64,000 nucleotides of DNA. Source: an uncultured bacterium (lineage in GTDB: Bacteria > Vulcanimicrobiota > Xenobia > Xenobiales > Xenobiaceae). The position numbers and the translations under genes were made by a program. The DNA lies in NCBI GenBank assembly GCA_958366945.1, contig CATXCY010000001.1:118496-182495 (forward strand). The letters run 5' to 3'. Below are positions 40,415 to 64,000 of the stretch, one piece after another (position 1 is the stretch's first letter; each line of letters begins with the position of its first letter). The notes below the pieces were generated by a model, which worked only from the letters and a program-made list of their open reading frames with translations, was not told the DNA's origin and did not search any database.

Positions 40415-40491
40415 TGGTGGACGAGAACGGACTCGAACCGCCGACCCCCTGCTTGTAAGGCAGGTGCTCTAACCAACTGAGCTACTCGTCC
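40415..40491 (-). tRNA. tRNA-Val (anticodon TAC).
   Basis: Cloverleaf reads GGACGAGTAGCTCAGTTGG..CTTACAA..GGTTCGAGTCC with encoded CCA. Confidence 0.85.
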
Positions 40492-40584
40492 AAAAAAAAG
40501 AGAAGCTTTTCAGTAAACGCTGTCTAACTAAATCAGCCTCTCATTCTATTTAACCGCCTTCCCTATGAAGGACAGTGTTTTAAG

Positions 40585-40661
40585 TGGTAGCCCGGACGGG
40601 AATCGAACCCGTGATCTCCGGCTTGAAAGGCCAGCGTCCTAAACCGCTAGACCACCGGGCC
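40585..40661 (-). tRNA. tRNA-Glu (anticodon TTC).
   Basis: GGCCCGGTGGTCTAGCGGTTAGGAC, anticodon loop CTTTCAA, GGTTCGATTCC, CCA. Confidence 0.85.
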
Positions 40662-40693
40662 ATGTACACTTTTCTTGAACACCAAGGGGGTCT

Positions 40694-40769
40694 TGGTGGG
40701 CCCACCTGGATTCGAACCAGGGACCAATTAGTTATGAGCCAACTGCTCTAACCGCTGAGCTATGGGCCC
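40694..40769 (-). tRNA. tRNA-Met (CAT). Elongator type; a lysidine tRNA-Ile2 cannot be excluded.
   Basis: GGGCCCATAGCTCAGCGGTTAGAGC, anticodon loop CTCATAA, GGTTCGAATCC, CCA. Confidence 0.8.
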
Positions 40770-57555: not shown

Positions 57556-59304
57556 CTAGAACGAAATAAATATGGGCAAAGAGATCGCTTTCTTTTCGCG
57601 TCTAGCTTTATTAAGTTCTTGCGAGCACAACAAAGGATAAGTTAACCTTACAGCTTGGAAAAGATCGTTTTCAGCTTGGTTTAGACTATCTAAAAACAGA
57701 CCCGTCAAACTGCTATCCGAATTGCCTTTACTCGAATCAGCCGTGCCATAAATTAAAGCAGTACAAGAGCTACTATCTAATTGGCTGGCAATTAAAACAT
57801 TGTTTTTATCTAATTGGCTGGGTAAATTCTTCACTTGCGAAGATTTTACGTCCCAAATAATCATAAAGCGAGCACCGGGCAAAGATTGCCGATATTGACG
57901 TAAATAGTCGGAAGTTATGCTAAAATTCTCTTTTTCATCACTACTGACGAAAGCTAATTTTTTACCGTCAAAGTTAAAATTGCCAATTAAATAGAGCACT
58001 ACTAAATCGGAAGAATTACAAGAAGCTCTTATATTTTCCAAAGATTTCTTAATATTTTCGGCTTTGGCCTCTGCTCCAGGCAAAGTTTTAACGCTGAAAC
58101 CGCGCTCCATAAAAGCTTGACGCACTTGCATAGATTTCTGACTGTTAGAAACATCACTTAAATTGTAGTTGGGACCGACTATTAAAGTTCTGGTCTTCAT
58201 TCCTTGGTCAGAAGTAACAGCGTATAGTTCAAAGGATTTTTTAAGTTTGCGCCCTTCCAAATCGGCTACATCTATTTCAATTTTGTTAGTTCCCGGCTTA
58301 AGATCTACACAAAGATCTATTTCTAAATCGGCAATTTGCAAACCTAAAGGAGTATTCCAAAGATTTTCTCCGTTAATAGTTAAGGATGCACTGAGAATAC
58401 CGGCCGGAGCATCTATAGTACCACGCAAAGGAACTTGCTTAACGCTAGATATTTTATTTCCTATGGGATCAACAATATTGACAAAAGGAGAGCGATCGTC
58501 TTTAGCTATTTGCAAATCGTACGTTTTATTAACTAAGCGACGAAAACCAGCTAAGCCATAGATCGATTCACGCATATCTAAAACAACTTCCAAAGAGAGA
58601 ATATCACCCTTGAGAGTAGCATTCTTTATGGAACTTATGGAGTTGTAACAAATAAAATTAGGCGAAGGTAGATCCAAGGCCGCACTCGTCTGTTCATCTA
58701 GGCTAAAAGCTTGGAAAGAGCTCAAAGGATAAAGTGCTCCTATTAAACGCTGGCCACGCTTAATTTCCAAACCGGAATTGCCATCTAAATAGATGCGCTC
58801 CTCTACTCTATCGCCATCTATATCTTTTCTATAAAGCAAGCGCTTCGTTTTATAAGCTTGCGATTTGTAGCTAAGCCACGATTCATCAGTAACTTTTACG
58901 CTGACATTGCCATTTTCAGGAAGCTGACGGTTGAATTTTGCTCTGGCTAACCAGTTAAGATACTGGCATCCTCCGGAACGCAAGTCCCAGCTTATGTACT
59001 TTTTATCCTTGTCTTTAGAATTTAAAGAGCTTTGGGCTATTTTGTACAGTCCTTCCAATTCGGCAATTTCATAAGCTTGTTTCTTGGCCTCTTCGTTATT
59101 CAAGCCACTAGGCAAACCTACTTTAGAAATAAAACTTATTCTGCTCTTTTTTAAGTCTACAGCTGCAGTAGGAGCCGGATTGGGATCTTGGCCGTCTTCT
59201 TGAGCTGAAGTAGGCTGGACATTAGCCAATATAAATAAAAGAACTACTGACAGAGAAAGCAACAGACACAAACGACTGCGCTCAGATAAACAATTTAATA
59301 ACAT
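57556..59304 (-). CDS. Secreted protein of unknown function.
   Basis: Signal peptide LLLSLSVVLLFILANVQPTSAQ. 582 aa. C-terminal third has weak, probably degenerate caspase-like (C14) resemblance. Confidence 0.4.
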   Translation of the reverse strand: MLLNCLSERSRLCLLLSLSVVLLFILANVQPTSAQEDGQDPNPAPTAAVDLKKSRISFISKVGLPSGLNNEEAKKQAYEIAELEGLYKIAQSSLNSKDKDKKYISWDLRSGGCQYLNWLARAKFNRQLPENGNVSVKVTDESWLSYKSQAYKTKRLLYRKDIDGDRVEERIYLDGNSGLEIKRGQRLIGALYPLSSFQAFSLDEQTSAALDLPSPNFICYNSISSIKNATLKGDILSLEVVLDMRESIYGLAGFRRLVNKTYDLQIAKDDRSPFVNIVDPIGNKISSVKQVPLRGTIDAPAGILSASLTINGENLWNTPLGLQIADLEIDLCVDLKPGTNKIEIDVADLEGRKLKKSFELYAVTSDQGMKTRTLIVGPNYNLSDVSNSQKSMQVRQAFMERGFSVKTLPGAEAKAENIKKSLENIRASCNSSDLVVLYLIGNFNFDGKKLAFVSSDEKENFSITSDYLRQYRQSLPGARFMIIWDVKSSQVKNLPSQLDKNNVLIASQLDSSSCTALIYGTADSSKGNSDSSLTGLFLDSLNQAENDLFQAVRLTYPLLCSQELNKARREKKAISLPIFISF

Positions 59305-59319
59305 TTTGTATAATCGGCC

Positions 59320-60312
59320 TTAATCTTTAATTTTGTCCATATTTTTAAGTACGGCACGAATAAGTTTGCCTAAATCTGTTTGGGCATTTTCGGCGGCTTT
59401 CAAAACATCTTCATGATTGGTTATCGCATTAGAAGTGGACTTTTCGCCTTTCAGGGCAGGAATATCAGCAGGCACATCAGTTACACAAGAAAAGCCTAGC
59501 ACTTGCATACCGCTATAAACAGCCGCAATCACTTCAGGCACGGTAGACATGCCAACAACATCGGCTCCCATTAAACGGAGCATCTTACGTTCGGCTGGAG
59601 TCTCGTAAGAAGGGCCGAGCATAGATGCATAGACCCCTTCTTTTAAATTTATTTTTAACTTGCGAGCTTCATTTAAAGTAAGCTGACGCAAACTCGGAGT
59701 ATAAGCCGAGTTCATATCAAAAAAGCGCGGGCCTAATTTTTCGCTATTGGGGCCAACCATAGGATTAGAGCCCAAAAAATTAATGTGGTCTTTCAAAAGA
59801 ATAAGCTCACCTAAATAATGGCCCTGACTTATAGCACCAGAAGAGTTGCTAACTATCAAAGTTTTGGCTCCCAGAGCTTTGGCTACCAAAACCGGAAAGG
59901 CTACTTGGTTAATCTTATAGCCTTCATAGCAATGAACTCGTCCGCGCATCATTACTACCTTTTTGCCTTCCAAACGGCCAAAAACTAAAGAGCCAACGTG
60001 ACCTTCAACTGTAGAAACTGCAAATCCGGGAATGTCCCGATAAGAAATTTCAGTCTTATCCTCAGCCATATCAGCCAAAGAGCCCAAGCCGGAACCCAAA
60101 ATGATCATAATTTCAGGTTTAAAGTTAATTTTTTTGCTAAGGAAATCAGCCGCTTCACGCACTCTCTCTTCAGTTGTTTGTTGCTTGTCAGCCTGACATG
60201 CACGCAAGCAACAGTTAGAGCAAGAGGTCGACACTTCAGCTAAGCTGGGCAAAGCTGATGCCATTAGGCCTATTCCCAAAGTTAAAGATATAGCAATATT
60301 CCTAAAATTCAT
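59320..60312 (-). CDS. Purine nucleoside phosphorylase (PunA-type, PNP family 2) with an N-terminal signal-peptide-like extension.
   Basis: IILGSGLG...GHVGSLVFGRLEGKKVVMMRGRVHCYEGY is typical of trimeric PNP. The first 45 aa are MNFRNIAISLTLGIGLMASALPSLAEVSTSCSNCCLRAC. Confidence 0.8.
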   Translation of the reverse strand: MNFRNIAISLTLGIGLMASALPSLAEVSTSCSNCCLRACQADKQQTTEERVREAADFLSKKINFKPEIMIILGSGLGSLADMAEDKTEISYRDIPGFAVSTVEGHVGSLVFGRLEGKKVVMMRGRVHCYEGYKINQVAFPVLVAKALGAKTLIVSNSSGAISQGHYLGELILLKDHINFLGSNPMVGPNSEKLGPRFFDMNSAYTPSLRQLTLNEARKLKINLKEGVYASMLGPSYETPAERKMLRLMGADVVGMSTVPEVIAAVYSGMQVLGFSCVTDVPADIPALKGEKSTSNAITNHEDVLKAAENAQTDLGKLIRAVLKNMDKIKD

Positions 60313-60491: not shown

Positions 60492-61100
60492 ATGTTCATT
60501 AAATTTCTCAATTGTTTAGGAAGATATATAGAATTTTTGCTTACCGGTCAGAGTGATTTTAAAATTACCACTTCTGAATTTGAAAAAGCAGAAATTATCG
60601 ATAATGAAGTGCAAGCTAAAATTGCTTTACAAGAAGTGCGCCTGTATTTAAAAAAAGCCTTTTCTATAAATTTAACTAATCCGATAGTCATAAAACTTGG
60701 CCGCCCCCAAACTTGGGATTGGAAGTTGCGCCTAACTTCCGGATTCACTCATATTGGCAACTATTGCTGTGAGCGAATGGGAGAAAATTCAGCCCATATG
60801 ATAACTATTGTTCCTGGGCTAGAACGCATAAAATTTAAATCAGTACTTTGTCATGAACTAACTCACGCTTTTCAAGCTGAGCATGAAATGCTACGCAATT
60901 TCAAAGGCTACAAAGAAGGCATGGCCCGCTGGGTAGAATATCATTTTTTATTGGACAACCAACAAGGAGCAGAAGCTAAGAAAATTAGCGGCTTTGGCCT
61001 GGTATTGTTGGGCAACATGCTCAATAAAATTTTACTATATGAGAAAGAGCATGGACGAGCCGCTACCTGTCGTTGGCTAGCTTCCATGGATAATAATTAA
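60492..61100 (+). CDS. Putative zinc metallopeptidase (HExxH motif).
   Basis: LCHELTHAFQAEH in a 202-aa protein. Family not assignable by eye. Confidence 0.4.
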   Translation: MFIKFLNCLGRYIEFLLTGQSDFKITTSEFEKAEIIDNEVQAKIALQEVRLYLKKAFSINLTNPIVIKLGRPQTWDWKLRLTSGFTHIGNYCCERMGENSAHMITIVPGLERIKFKSVLCHELTHAFQAEHEMLRNFKGYKEGMARWVEYHFLLDNQQGAEAKKISGFGLVLLGNMLNKILLYEKEHGRAATCRWLASMDNN

Positions 61101-61179: not shown

Positions 61180-64000
61180 TTAACGAACGTTGCGACGAGA
61201 ACGACGCACCACTCCTGAGGAACGAGTGCCAGAGCGACGCCCGGAACGAGCAACACCAACATTACCGCTTCCTCTGTAAGAATCGACTGAAGAAGCAGAG
61301 ATACGGCGGCGAGAGCGACTTCCAGAAGAAGTGCGACGGCCATATCCTCTGGAAGATCCATTACCAGACGTGCTGTAATTACCGTCTGCATAAAGATCGT
61401 CAGCAGCATAATCTCCAGAAGCCGATTGATCGTAAGTTCCTAACTCAGCATAGTTGCTTTCGTTATAAGATCCATAAACAGGATACTCAAACTTCTCATC
61501 TTCGAGCTCAGGAGCATGGCCATAATACCTAACATAATCATCATAAGTATCGGCATCATCATAATGGCTCATATAGTCACTTCTGACATGCTCATTGTAA
61601 GCCGAAGAATCGTAGGCACTGCTCAGACGATAATCGTAGTTGGTGACAGCCATACTCTTAGCGGCACCTCTAGAGCGACGGCGGGAAGTAGTTTTTGCAT
61701 TTTCTTCAACCGCTTTGCTAGAAGAAGGAGAAGAAGTTGACTCGAACTTTTCAGCAGTAGAAGTTTCTTCTTTAGCTTGTGTATTCTTATTCACTTCACG
61801 GCGACGAGACTTACGCGGACTATAATCGTCACGGCGGTTTCTCGGAGAGCTAAAAGCTCGATCATAACTGCGACGAGCAGCTTCTATATCAGCTTCTTCC
61901 AAATCGGAGGCATGACTACCGTTATTGAAGCGACGGCGATAAATAGAGCTTACAACTGGCTCATCAACCTCTACAGAAGACTGTCCCTCTACTTTAGGAA
62001 GAGCCAAAGCTTGTTCTATTTGCTCTTCGCTCATGCCATTAGCTGAAGCGGAAATTTCGGCAATAGCGTCAACTTCAGCGGAAGGATCCGCCTTAGGAGC
62101 AGCAGTCTCAGTTTCGTGAGCAGCTTCTACTTTAGTTGTAGTATCAGCCTCAGGCTCGATCACAGATTCCGCTTGAGCAACAACTTCTTTCACTCCGGAA
62201 TTATCTACAATGTTGGAAGATGTATTTTCAAATTTATCATCCTCAACAGTAGACACACTCTGTTCGGCAGCTTCTGTTTCTTCTGCAGGCTCAGGTGCAA
62301 CTTCTGCACGACGAGCACGGCGGCGACGGCGCGTAGGAGAAGTTTCGGATTTTACTTTAGCTTCAACTTCTTTGGCAAAATCACGTTCTGTATCAGGAGC
62401 GTTTGTAGACTCCGGCTCACCCAAGACATCTTCTACAGCAGAAGTAATAGCTCTAATTTGAGCGCATACCTTCTCTTGAGCTGATACAGAAGGGGCTTCC
62501 TCTTCACGAGTAGATACAGACTTATTGCGAGTGCGACGGGAACGTACACTGTGATGAGCAGAAGTACCACGCAAAGGAGTCATTTCAAACTCGGCACGTT
62601 CCTGCGGAGTCATATTCTGATAATAAGCTTGCATCTCAGCACTGATATTGCGCCGATTGTCTCTAGCAGTAGCGGTTGCAAGTTGCTCTTTCTTTTCAGG
62701 TGCAGAAATAGCGCTACGTTTTTCTACAGTTTTGCTATTTTCAATAGAAGCGCTTTCTTCCTGACGACGATTGCGGCGATTACTCTCATTGCTAGAGCGT
62801 CTGGTACTCTCTTCAGCCTTTTCCTTATTTTCTCTGGAAGACTGCTTTTCCGGCTGGTGAGTAGGCTCAAAAATTTCATAAGTTTGACGCATACTGGCCG
62901 GTTGGCGGCGTGAAATGGAGAATTTGCGAACTTCAACAGGACGTAATTCATCAGCCAAACCATCTATTCCGAAGTAACGACCGATGCGACGCACCGCTTC
63001 ATCTAAACGAGAATCACGGAAAGAATTGGTAAGTTCACGGAAACGAACTACACGTTGACGCAAAGAAGAATCATCTAAGTAAATAACAAACTGAGCGTCG
63101 GAGTGGCTGGCAGCTTCCCAAGCATTGCCCTCTCCAGAATTAGGATAAGCCAATTCGGCATAAATGCCAGCTCTACGTAAGGCATACAACACAGGCAAAA
63201 GCAAAGACACAGCTGCTTGGCTACTGCCAGCTAAACATACATCCGATTGCTTCTCAATATTGGGAACCAAGTTGGCTTCTCGCACAGCTCTTAAAGTCAT
63301 ATCCAAATCGACGGCACAATCGACCGCAGGAATATCGCGACCTCCTAAGAGGCGAGAAAGTTCGTCACAACGGCCGCCGAAACTGAGCACGTTGCGACCG
63401 CAGCTAATCTGGAAAACCGTGCGATTATAACACTCTACATCTGGTACCAAGAGAGGAGATAAGCGATAAGAAACCTTAAGTTCGTCTAAATAAGCACGTA
63501 CAGCTTCAAAATGTTCGCGGCATTCAGGGCAAAGGTAGCCGAAAATAGAAGGAGCAACTTGAGACAACTCGCGGCAGCACTTTTCTTCACAACCCATAGT
63601 CCAAAGAGGATGAGTGCGATAACGATGGTGGCATTTAGGACAAAGCTCACCACTGCGGCGAGAGAAATAATCATAAAGGCCTTGCTGATATTCAGCACGA
63701 CATTTTTTACATCCCAAAGAGTTCAACTGTACTTTTAAGTCGCTCAATCCCAAAGCATTAAAGAAATCATAAGCGATCATCAGAGCTTCAACATCGAGAC
63801 TGGGCAAAATAGAGCCTACAGCTCCCACTCCAAAGCGATGGCTCTGTACAGCCGATTGCTCACGCCCTTTAGGAGCGGCAAATACAGGAGCTAAATAATA
63901 AAGTTTGGCCGGCTCACCATTTCTAGAAATGGGCAAATTTTCATCATTTATAGCTCTAATCATGGGCACAAGCATATTGGCGCGCATGGCAAAACGATGA
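61180..64000 (-). CDS. HisRS/HisZ-like class II aaRS-like core with Cys-rich insertions, fused to a long Arg/Ser/Glu-rich low-complexity C-terminal region. 5' end truncated by the window edge.
   Basis: The N-terminal part aligns to HisRS: AKLYYLAPVF.., LNSLG..Y, FGGRCDEL (~GGGRYDGL). Motif 2 is degenerate. The reading frame stays open upstream of the tracker Met at 63987 (..HRFAMRANMLV), so the gene continues beyond 64000. Downstream are ~580 aa of R/S/E/A-rich sequence (RRRRARRAE..., SRSRRRISASS...). Confidence 0.6.
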   Translation of the reverse strand, partial: HRFAMRANMLVPMIRAINDENLPISRNGEPAKLYYLAPVFAAPKGREQSAVQSHRFGVGAVGSILPSLDVEALMIAYDFFNALGLSDLKVQLNSLGCKKCRAEYQQGLYDYFSRRSGELCPKCHHRYRTHPLWTMGCEEKCCRELSQVAPSIFGYLCPECREHFEAVRAYLDELKVSYRLSPLLVPDVECYNRTVFQISCGRNVLSFGGRCDELSRLLGGRDIPAVDCAVDLDMTLRAVREANLVPNIEKQSDVCLAGSSQAAVSLLLPVLYALRRAGIYAELAYPNSGEGNAWEAASHSDAQFVIYLDDSSLRQRVVRFRELTNSFRDSRLDEAVRRIGRYFGIDGLADELRPVEVRKFSISRRQPASMRQTYEIFEPTHQPEKQSSRENKEKAEESTRRSSNESNRRNRRQEESASIENSKTVEKRSAISAPEKKEQLATATARDNRRNISAEMQAYYQNMTPQERAEFEMTPLRGTSAHHSVRSRRTRNKSVSTREEEAPSVSAQEKVCAQIRAITSAVEDVLGEPESTNAPDTERDFAKEVEAKVKSETSPTRRRRRARRAEVAPEPAEETEAAEQSVSTVEDDKFENTSSNIVDNSGVKEVVAQAESVIEPEADTTTKVEAAHETETAAPKADPSAEVDAIAEISASANGMSEEQIEQALALPKVEGQSSVEVDEPVVSSIYRRRFNNGSHASDLEEADIEAARRSYDRAFSSPRNRRDDYSPRKSRRREVNKNTQAKEETSTAEKFESTSSPSSSKAVEENAKTTSRRRSRGAAKSMAVTNYDYRLSSAYDSSAYNEHVRSDYMSHYDDADTYDDYVRYYGHAPELEDEKFEYPVYGSYNESNYAELGTYDQSASGDYAADDLYADGNYSTSGNGSSRGYGRRTSSGSRSRRRISASSVDSYRGSGNVGVARSGRRSGTRSSGVVRRSRRNVR

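Follow-up and report, generated by a model that had tools for sequence, protein, structure and literature searches.

A candidate pseudo-synthetase in Xenobia: an eroded histidyl-tRNA synthetase fold joined to a long charged tail

Location and integrity of the gene

The analyzed DNA is a stretch of 64,000 nt (hereafter, the window) from an uncultured bacterium of the family Xenobiaceae (contig CATXCY010000001.1 of GenBank assembly GCA_958366945.1, positions 118,496 to 182,495 of the forward strand). At its right-hand end lies a single minus-strand open reading frame (ORF), whose product combines a core resembling histidyl-tRNA synthetase (HisRS) with a long tail rich in charged residues, and which we consider a candidate non-catalytic paralogue of bacterial HisRS. 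The ORF terminates at a TAA stop codon (61180-61182) and remains open through the window edge (63999/64000). The ATG at position 63987, which was chosen by the ORF lister, is an internal start, and no stop codon occurs further upstream within the window. A protein from public assemblies that is 99% identical to the window protein (P0001) has a full length of 1012 aa. In its numbering, which is used below, the window encodes residues 74-1012 (939 of about 1012 aa), and the 73 N-terminal codons, including motif 1, are located beyond base 64000. The features of the gene are listed in Table 1.

Relatives bearing organism names were found in "bacterium UBP9_UBA11836" and "Candidatus Bruticola sp." (Vulcanimicrobiota, a synonym of Eremiobacterota; class Xenobia). 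Near homologues were also observed in metagenome-assembled genomes (MAGs) from the Hadza human gut and from goat rumen, the goat-rumen protein being shorter (about 870 aa). The Xenobia sequences from NCBI, ENA, JGI, and Logan were reduced to 16 cluster representatives, of which nine are approximately 970-1012 aa long and the other seven between 725 and 1003 aa. P0002 alone is on record for 33 contigs and appears in 53 blocks of the contig index.

Selection was estimated as the ratio of non-synonymous to synonymous substitution rates (dN/dS) by comparison with locus L001, the two products being 90% identical at a synonymous divergence (dS) of about 0.5. The ratio is 0.006 for the HisRS-like core and 0.24 for the tail as a whole, with much lower values in two parts of the tail, residues 734-793 (0.02) and residues 854-913 (0.03). 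These substitution patterns show that the gene is real and strongly conserved in the gut-dwelling Xenobia, with its core under very strong purifying selection, and that the tail is coding and under purifying selection as well.

These data bear on the trivial explanation of the locus, namely that a frameshift, a chimeric assembly, or the decay of a pseudogene has joined a hisS remnant to non-coding low-complexity DNA. Low-complexity DNA rich in Arg codons may in principle cause misassembly, and an error between core and tail had been considered in the initial annotation of this ORF. However, an unbroken ORF of approximately 970-1012 aa is found again in assemblies that are independent of each other and stem from several sources and hosts (among them Hadza gut and the Candidatus Bruticola sp. 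MAG), the tail shows in-frame purifying selection that is strongest in the two islands given above, and Tandem Repeats Finder reported no array in the tail DNA. Therefore, frameshift, assembly artefact, and pseudogene can be excluded for practical purposes. The tail DNA had also been described as repetitive and rich in CGACG/GCGACG. The enrichment holds, with 5.9 copies of GCGACG per kb on the plus strand of the tail against 0.16 per kb in the remaining window, because this hexamer is the antisense of the Arg-Arg codon pair CGT-CGC; the repeats themselves were not recovered.

Table 1. Features of the HisRS-like gene and its upstream block (window coordinates unless indicated otherwise; residues in P0001 numbering).
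Feature	Position	Strand	Evidence or comment
HisRS-like pseudo-synthetase ORF (candidate)	61180..64000	(-)	no in-frame stop to window end; full-length P0001 1012 aa
Class II catalytic-domain remnant, residues 74-326	63241..63999	(-)	HisRS structure alignment; pLDDT about 90; TM 0.77 to 4e51/4rdx
Eroded motif 2, KLYYLAPVFAAPKGREQSAVQSHRFGVGAVG	63814..63906	(-)	R113>A, E115>P, R121>S, F125>S, Q127>R, E131>G
Insertion domain, eight Cys (CKKC, CPKC, C-x4-C, CPEC)	63469..63717	(-)	ancestral to HisRS subtype; likely metal site
HisA remnant LVPDVECYNRT (canonical LVRGLDYYxxT)	63418..63450	(-)	Arg259->Pro, Tyr263->Cys
Motif 3 remnant FGGRCDEL (canonical GGGRYDGL)	63358..63381	(-)	Gly, Arg, Asp kept; Tyr->Cys
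Anticodon-binding-domain fold, residues 327-425	62944..63240	(-)	1qe0 alignment to residue 401; AF2; Foldseek
Basic linker ELRPVEVRKFSISRRQPASMRQTYEIFEP, directly after the fold	62863..62949	(-)	near-invariant in 16 Xenobia sequences
Tail, 587 aa, residues 426-1012, blocky charge, predicted disordered	61183..62943	(-)	AF2, composition, dN/dS 0.24
Two predicted helices (522-546, 580-598) around HHSVRSRRTR motif	62425..62655	(-)	AF2 pLDDT up to 84; conserved columns
Most conserved island, AEVDAIAEISASANGMSEEQIEQALALPKVEG...YRRRF...ARRSYDRAF	61849..62079	(-)	dN/dS 0.02 (734-793); AF2 helices 718-738, 775-790
Tyr/Asp-rich acidic block, residues 874-953	61369..61647	(-)	16 aromatic residues, net charge -16
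Arg/Ser/Gly-rich basic C-terminus, residues 954-1012	61183..61368	(-)	net charge +16
Upstream block (ftsA-like, nrdR, PNP, PyNP)	L001 5531-9391 (outside window)		same block in L004-L006, L008-L032

HisRS fold and domain order

The window fragment matches the NCBIfam hisS profile with E=1.8e-47 (162 bits) over model positions 72-398 of 406, and the full-length core aligns with Staphylococcus aureus HisRS (1qe0; E=6.9e-58, residues 4-401). A structural model of P0001 was computed with AlphaFold2 (AF2) from a 57-sequence family alignment. Its predicted local distance difference test (pLDDT) score is about 90 across residues 10-425, and Foldseek superimposed it on the full-length bacterial HisRSs 4e51, 1qe0, 1adj, and 4rdx over about 415-430 columns, with target-normalized template-modelling (TM) scores between 0.70 and 0.77, the highest value being that of the 4e51/4rdx matches. 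The modelled structure thus shows that the full HisRS architecture is retained, comprising the class II core, the Cys-rich insertion domain, and the anticodon-binding-domain fold.

A degenerate HisRS-like core followed by a long disordered tail rich in R, S, and E had been proposed in the initial annotation, and the profile and structure matches agree with it. The accompanying statement that the tail stands in place of an anticodon-binding domain has to be revised, since the corresponding fold is present in residues 327-425. This region is predicted to adopt an alpha/beta fold (pLDDT 74-94), and the Pfam HGTP_anticodon profile matches the window protein weakly (E=0.023). The fold is 78% conserved within Xenobia and has 19-20% identity to canonical domains, which share 41% identity among themselves. 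Besides the HisRS-type matches, the Pfam scan of the 939-aa fragment revealed no further domain.

Erosion of the active site

The active-site positions were compared in an alignment of 70 long HisRS-like forms (the family described below) and 191 canonical HisRSs, using the numbering of Escherichia coli HisRS and the residue roles in its structures. There, R259 is the catalytic Arg of the HisA motif, F125 stacks on the adenine, and E83, T85, Q127, E131, Y263/Y264, and Y312 belong to the histidine pocket. Eleven positions are invariant in all 191 canonical proteins, and the window protein retains two of them, Y264 and R311 (motif 3). The other nine are replaced: E83 by N, T85 by L, R113 (motif 2) by A, R121 by S, Q127 by R, E131 by G, R259 (HisA) by P, Y263 by C, and Y312 by C. 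Two further changes, E115 to P and F125 to S, affect positions at which the canonical set shows some variation. The replacements thus extend to residues for ATP binding, for histidine binding, and for the catalysis of adenylation. Motif 2 of the window protein reads FAAPKGREQSAVQSHRF, as compared with the canonical FRYERPQ.GR.R.FHQF, so that the erosion of this motif suspected at the outset persisted after careful alignment (R113>A, E115>P, F125>S). The Pro at the position of Arg259 is found in 16/16 Xenobia long forms. The Gly, Arg, and Asp of motif 3 are kept in 16/16 Xenobia proteins and in 53-54 of the 54 other long forms.

The same picture is given by the hisS hidden Markov model (HMM) TIGR00442. 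Full-length P0001 scores 233 bits, below the trusted cutoff of 286.75, as does the window protein, and the canonical control P0074 scores 525 bits. Replacement of residues that are invariant in canonical enzymes therefore makes it very unlikely, as far as sequence can tell, that the window protein aminoacylates tRNA or forms an aminoacyl-adenylate. Of the two alternatives considered initially, a pseudo-aminoacyl-tRNA synthetase or a bona fide HisRS with an appendage, the former is favored by both the replaced residues and the HMM score.

By its fold, its domain order, and the GGRxD of motif 3, the window protein groups with HisRS, whereas the Arg/Glu/Phe of motif 2, the HisA Arg, and the histidine pocket are missing. 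The closest canonical type is the HisRS with a Cys-rich insertion (Firmicutes/Negativicutes-like; S. aureus 1qe0, Thermus thermophilus 4rdx). It shares with the window protein the fold, the domain order, the eight Cys, and the motif-3 Gly-Arg-Asp, but the latter protein has replaced motif-2, HisA, and pocket residues, half the HMM score, an anticodon-binding-domain fold that is about 19% identical, and an additional tail of 587 aa.

Ancestral and Xenobia-specific cysteines

The Cys clusters of the core had been ascribed to an acquired Zn-binding capacity. The clusters exist, but their acquisition is contradicted by the alignment. Depending on the column, 86-100% of the 191 canonical HisRSs have Cys at the eight insertion-domain positions, as do all (100%) of the Xenobia long forms. 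The distribution of these residues indicates that they are ancestral to this HisRS subtype, and they likely form a metal site. The first two CxxC pairs give a weak Pfam match to DUF7836 (E=0.0012, below the cutoff). The insertion domain is the segment that is best conserved between the family subclades (47% identity).

Four other Cys are new in the Xenobia clade and essentially absent from both the other long forms and the 191 canonical HisRSs. They occupy the Tyr263 position (69% of Xenobia proteins), the Tyr312 position (100%), a position in the GFA motif (88%), and residue 328 (100%). Three of the four fall on former active-site positions, which invites the explanation that the Xenobia pocket has been converted into a new site for sensing a ligand, a metal, or the redox state, with the clade-specific Cys as its lining; the fold would then be the sensor, and the tail would provide the output. 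The dN/dS of 0.006, observed despite the loss of catalysis, implies that the altered pocket region is strongly constrained. On the other hand, the gene context points to no ligand, and the conservation is equally explicable by protein-protein or RNA interfaces. We regard a sensor of this kind as a tentative and rather unlikely alternative.

The charged C-terminal tail

The tail of approximately 580 aa anticipated in the initial annotation as low-complexity and disordered measures 587 aa, and the AF2 pLDDT is below 50 over most of its length. It is composed of 14.7% S, 12% E, 11.5% R, and 11% A. The charges are arranged in blocks in the order of a basic start, an RRRRRARR run, an acidic segment (residues 634-753, net -22), the Tyr/Asp-rich block (874-953), and the basic end. 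A cluster of R/K residues occurs at the position of the initial linker throughout the family. Helices are predicted by AF2 at residues 522-546, 580-598, 718-738, 775-790, and 892-899, and they match the conserved islands of the Xenobia alignment. The island AEVDAIAEISASANGMSEEQIEQALALPKVEG...ARRSYDRAF is conserved across the Xenobia subclades. The Tyr columns of the acidic block, which overlaps the stretch of low dN/dS at residues 854-913, are also conserved in the Xenobia alignment, and the R/S-rich C-terminus is common to all Xenobia members.

The tail has no Pfam relative and no match in PDB, and an exhaustive HMMER scan of 1.84 billion protein representatives yielded four matches only, all of them Xenobia long forms. 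Its overall organization, a blocky polyampholyte with an Arg/Ser/Gly-rich basic end, a Tyr-rich acidic block, and short conserved helices, resembles that of other charged disordered tails, as comparators for which we take the C-terminal region of RNase E, the basic tails of DEAD-box helicases, and the eukaryotic RS/RGG and Tyr-rich low-complexity domains. In contrast to these, it shows no sequence homology and is joined to an aminoacyl-tRNA synthetase (aaRS) fold.

A family of long HisRS-like proteins

When the core of a distant member was used as the query, about 50 long proteins were retrieved (558-714 aa; 350-946 bits), and a clear gap in score separates them from the canonical HisRSs of approximately 420 aa, which reach no more than 308 bits. 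Family members recovered in total range between 558 and 1135 aa. All 57 aligned members possess a tail, which is 143-711 aa long and has a median charged fraction of about 40%, a median Arg content of 15.6%, and a low hydrophobic content. The 191 canonical relatives recovered are all shorter than 470 aa, and none of them has such a tail. In an outgroup-rooted neighbor-joining tree, computed without HisZ sequences, the long forms group as one monophyletic clade (20/20 bootstraps, stem length 0.31), and the Xenobia members constitute a nested subclade (20/20 bootstraps, stem length 0.34).

Motif 1 is conserved across the family. In the 54 non-Xenobia members, the motif-2 residues are gone (R113>L/M, E115>G, F125>S/A), and the histidine pocket is almost fully preserved (D or E, T, Q, E, R, Y, Y, R, Y). 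The distribution of these changes looks like a two-step decay, in which the ATP site went first, in the family ancestor, and the histidine pocket followed in Xenobia. In the first step, the ancestor would have lost the motif-2 ATP site and gained a charged tail while keeping the histidine pocket. In the second, the Xenobia lineage would have lost the pocket, extended the tail to 294-587 aa, and acquired the four new Cys, of which three lie where active-site residues used to be and one at the start of the anticodon-binding-domain fold. Such a series, with the ATP site decaying first, provides a natural example of the change from an aaRS to a pseudoenzyme.

The family was recovered almost only from MAGs labelled Eremiobacterota or unclassified. 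Its members are named in databases "histidine--tRNA ligase", "ATP phosphoribosyltransferase regulatory subunit", or "hypothetical", and searches of the full-text literature brought up no account of a comparable bacterial family of HisRS-like proteins. It is a hitherto undescribed family whose members are mislabelled in databases as HisRS or HisZ.

Two minor observations concern individual members. P0012 has an N-terminal addition (residues 1-48) that includes the hydrophobic stretch LLSGLCILFLCFGLFFAG and that is either a membrane anchor or the result of a wrongly called start. Six loci (L012, L015, L016, L018, L030, and L031) are titled "uncultured Burkholderiales bacterium" and one (L023) "Selenomonadaceae bacterium", though each is of the Eremiobacterota type with identical synteny; the titles of these MAGs, which are GTDB species representatives, are probably wrong public taxonomic labels.

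Search for a separate canonical hisS

When the 64-kb window was searched by phmmer with canonical HisRS, only this ORF matched, and no canonical HisRS was detected near the gene in any locus searched with ftsA, nrdR, PNP/UDP-family phosphorylase (PNP), pyrimidine-nucleoside phosphorylase (PyNP), and HisRS queries. The supplements of the Vulcanimicrobium alpinus paper contain no hisS, hisZ, or hisG entries.

The sole canonical HisRS labelled "Eremiobacteraeota" that was recovered (P0106) is encoded on the 4188-bp alaS-hisS contig L007 (JAGHEA010000185.1). Its nearest relative is a HisRS of Chloroflexi (64% identity), and no other Eremiobacterota sequence is present among its top 120 matches. 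This contig was probably misbinned in the "Candidatus Eremiobacteraeota" MAG, as suggested by these similarities, and P0106 was rejected as the canonical hisS of the phylum for its Chloroflexi affinity. The canonical HisRSs nearest to the family form a cluster that is 71-94% identical to "Schwartzia sp." sequences and belong to hisS-aspS operons, an arrangement typical of Firmicutes; they look like Negativicutes hisS-aspS operons. The tetranucleotide correlation between one hisS-aspS contig and the window is 0.80, as compared with 0.92-0.98 for same-genus loci, which overlap homologous genes. Two further canonical candidates from NCBI were discarded, as they come from unrelated assemblies.

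The failure to find a second hisS is one of the points in favor of the family gene being the bona fide HisRS of the organism, equipped with a C-terminal appendage and a non-canonical active site. Non-Xenobia members also pass the TIGR00442 cutoff (297-323 bits) and bear the NCBI name histidine--tRNA ligase, and the motif-3 Gly-Arg-Asp is kept. Against these points stand the replacement of canonical-invariant positions, including the motif-2 Arg, the Pro in place of the HisA Arg in every Xenobia long form, and the score of the window protein under the hisS cutoff. Moreover, the active-site positions differ between Xenobia and non-Xenobia members, which is hardly compatible with a conserved essential chemistry. 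It is this difference between the subclades that provides our main argument that there must be a separate functional HisRS, and we consider the bona fide enzyme very improbable.

Comparison with HisZ and GCN2

Classical HisZ is not known to have an anticodon-binding-domain fold or a long tail, and we take its histidine site to lie at the same positions as the HisRS pocket. HisZ is a histidine-binding regulator of ATP phosphoribosyltransferase (PMC10998830), and its function has also been described elsewhere (PMC9437257). The window protein could accordingly be a HisZ-type regulatory subunit of the short-form enzyme, as the term "HisZ-like" in the initial annotation implied. Three Ca. Bruticola proteins (P0008, P0009, and P0013) carry the NCBI name of this subunit; the family, as HisZ, is a HisRS paralogue without catalytic residues; and the histidine pocket is kept in its non-Xenobia members.

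However, the HisZ profile TIGR00443, with a cutoff of 271.65 bits, gives P0001 76 bits and the other tested members 143-170, all lower than the 186 bits obtained for the canonical HisRS P0074. The family is a single clade among hisS-type sequences, in the tree without HisZ sequences. No HisG-family Pfam domain was present among the called genes of the five annotated loci, to which no dedicated HisG probe was applied, and in the remaining loci only the five queries named above were used. Finally, the histidine-pocket residues have disappeared in Xenobia, the anticodon-binding-domain fold is complete, and a long tail is present. The HisZ identity, which we judge improbable, was rejected on the HMM scores and the gene context, and the label "HisZ-like" was not retained. 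Both HisZ and the long family are HisRS paralogues devoid of adenylation chemistry, and the non-Xenobia members share with HisZ a kept histidine site (PMC10998830; PMC9437257), but the long family appears to be independently derived from hisS, fails the hisZ HMM, and in Xenobia has lost the histidine pocket as well.

The HisRS-like domain of eukaryotic GCN2, which is located beside a C-terminal region and binds uncharged tRNA (PMC4335047), may be regarded by analogy as the closest precedent for a pseudo-HisRS serving as an RNA-binding sensor. Both are catalytically dead HisRS-like modules, the likeness being a functional analogy only and not family membership. The window protein is bacterial and has no kinase or other effector domain, as far as the Pfam scan of the fragment and the PDB search of the tail revealed; in particular, the fused eIF2-alpha kinase domain of GCN2 is missing.

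Functional interpretation and implications

The explanation that we prefer, with a probability of roughly one half, is that the gene product is a non-catalytic paralogue of bacterial HisRS, i.e., a pseudo-synthetase, which probably acts as a dimeric scaffold or regulator with a tail binding RNA or a polyanion. As proposed here, the protein would be non-enzymatic and probably dimeric. The Arg-rich segments of its tail would bind RNA or another polyanion, the Tyr-rich acidic block together with the Arg-rich C-terminus could drive multivalent self-association, and the conserved helical islands could recruit partners. Functionally, the nearest precedents are HisZ and the tRNA-binding HisRS-like domain of GCN2 (PMC4335047). 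The charging of tRNA-His is assumed to be the task of a separate canonical HisRS encoded elsewhere in the genome.

Several observations weigh against this interpretation. Neither the window nor the loci and proteins searched yielded a canonical hisS that could be assigned to a genome of the phylum. RNA binding, dimerization, and self-association are suggested from composition and analogy only. The synteny partners of the gene (nucleoside phosphorylases, NrdR, and an FtsA-like protein) give no pointer to RNA biology, and upstream of the gene no T-box or other Rfam element was detected, either at gathering thresholds in seven loci or at E<=1 in the Xenobia intergenic region. The anticodon-binding-domain fold is so divergent from canonical domains (19-20% identity, against 41% among the latter) that specific recognition of tRNA-His is therefore doubtful on sequence grounds.

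A more specific scenario, to which we assign a low likelihood, treats the family as a previously unrecognized regulatory pseudo-synthetase of Eremiobacterota, a bacterial counterpart of GCN2 and HisZ that ancestrally would read histidine or uncharged tRNA by means of a HisRS fold unable to adenylate and that would have been rewired in gut Xenobia, where it would nucleate RNA-protein assemblies. The rewired form would be characterized by the Cys-lined pocket and by the pairing of the Tyr-rich acidic block with the Arg/Ser-rich C-terminus. If true, such a regulator would link amino-acid or redox status to the nucleotide-salvage or cell-cycle genes that always adjoin it.

The pseudo-synthetase interpretation has consequences for both the evolution and the annotation of HisRS-derived proteins. 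HisZ is listed as the sole HisRS-derived paralogue in a review of aaRS duplications (PMC9437257), and no other HisRS paralogue is discussed in a large aaRS survey (PMC5388404). The long family would thus constitute a second, apparently independent, bacterial pseudo-HisRS lineage, in which the anticodon-binding-domain fold is retained and a long tail of predicted disorder has been added. With respect to annotation, the sequence evidence speaks against the name "histidine--tRNA ligase", and such tests for a HisZ identity as were performed gave negative results. Several non-Xenobia members score above the trusted cutoff of TIGR00442 and can be mistaken for true hisS in metabolic reconstructions. 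Since TIGR00442 is used in single-copy marker sets, family members could be miscounted there. The tail itself, with its Arg/Ser and Tyr/Asp blocks, is an unusual bacterial sequence for which RNA binding or condensate formation is possible.

Gene neighborhood

The order ftsA-nrdR-(PNP)-PyNP was observed upstream of the family gene in every locus with enough upstream sequence, comprising 24 GTDB species representatives and 7 others. This tightly packed block consists of an ftsA-like gene, nrdR, a gene of the PNP/UDP-family phosphorylases, and a pyrimidine-nucleoside phosphorylase gene; nrdR was not detected in L011, and PNP is missing in four loci. The block order is kept even where the identity between the family proteins is as low as about 27%, and no ftsZ follows the ftsA-like gene.

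The intergenic gap preceding the family gene varies between about 190 and 820 nt. Before the gene start, a non-coding block, CACCGTAGAGCTTGCC ... GGTTGTGTGCTCCGGYTTGA, was noticed at about 9700-9900 of L001, at the equivalent places of L009 and L008, and in columns from about 740 to 800 of alignment A3. It is conserved even between loci with saturated synonymous sites and has no Rfam match; it could be a promoter or leader element.

Several genes on the other side are also worth recording. The window encodes three tRNA genes at 40415-40769 on the minus strand, Val(TAC), Glu(TTC), and Met(CAT), and no tRNA-His. At 57556-59304 on the minus strand lies a gene for a 582-aa protein with a signal-like N-terminus and no Pfam match, which is adjacent to a second PNP_UDP_1 paralogue (59320-60312, minus strand) and is found beside it in L001 and L008. 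The latter paralogue begins with a sequence resembling a signal peptide, after which comes the Cys-rich segment SCSNCCLRAC, a start that is unusual for a nucleoside phosphorylase, and it occurs only in Xenobia loci (L001, L008-L011).

Immediately after the family gene, in the convergent orientation, a 202-aa HExxH protein (HELTHAFQ) is encoded at 60492-61100 on the plus strand, and the same place is occupied by its counterpart in L001 and L008; its sole Pfam match, to the BSP peptidase family, is below the threshold. In two other loci (L005 11866-12339, L006 11831-12304), a gene for a 157-aa biotin/lipoyl-domain protein starts a few bases from the stop codon of the family gene, which suggests that the two genes are co-transcribed in some non-Xenobia genomes. 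In Xenobia, the convergent HExxH gene stands in place of the biotin/lipoyl-domain gene.

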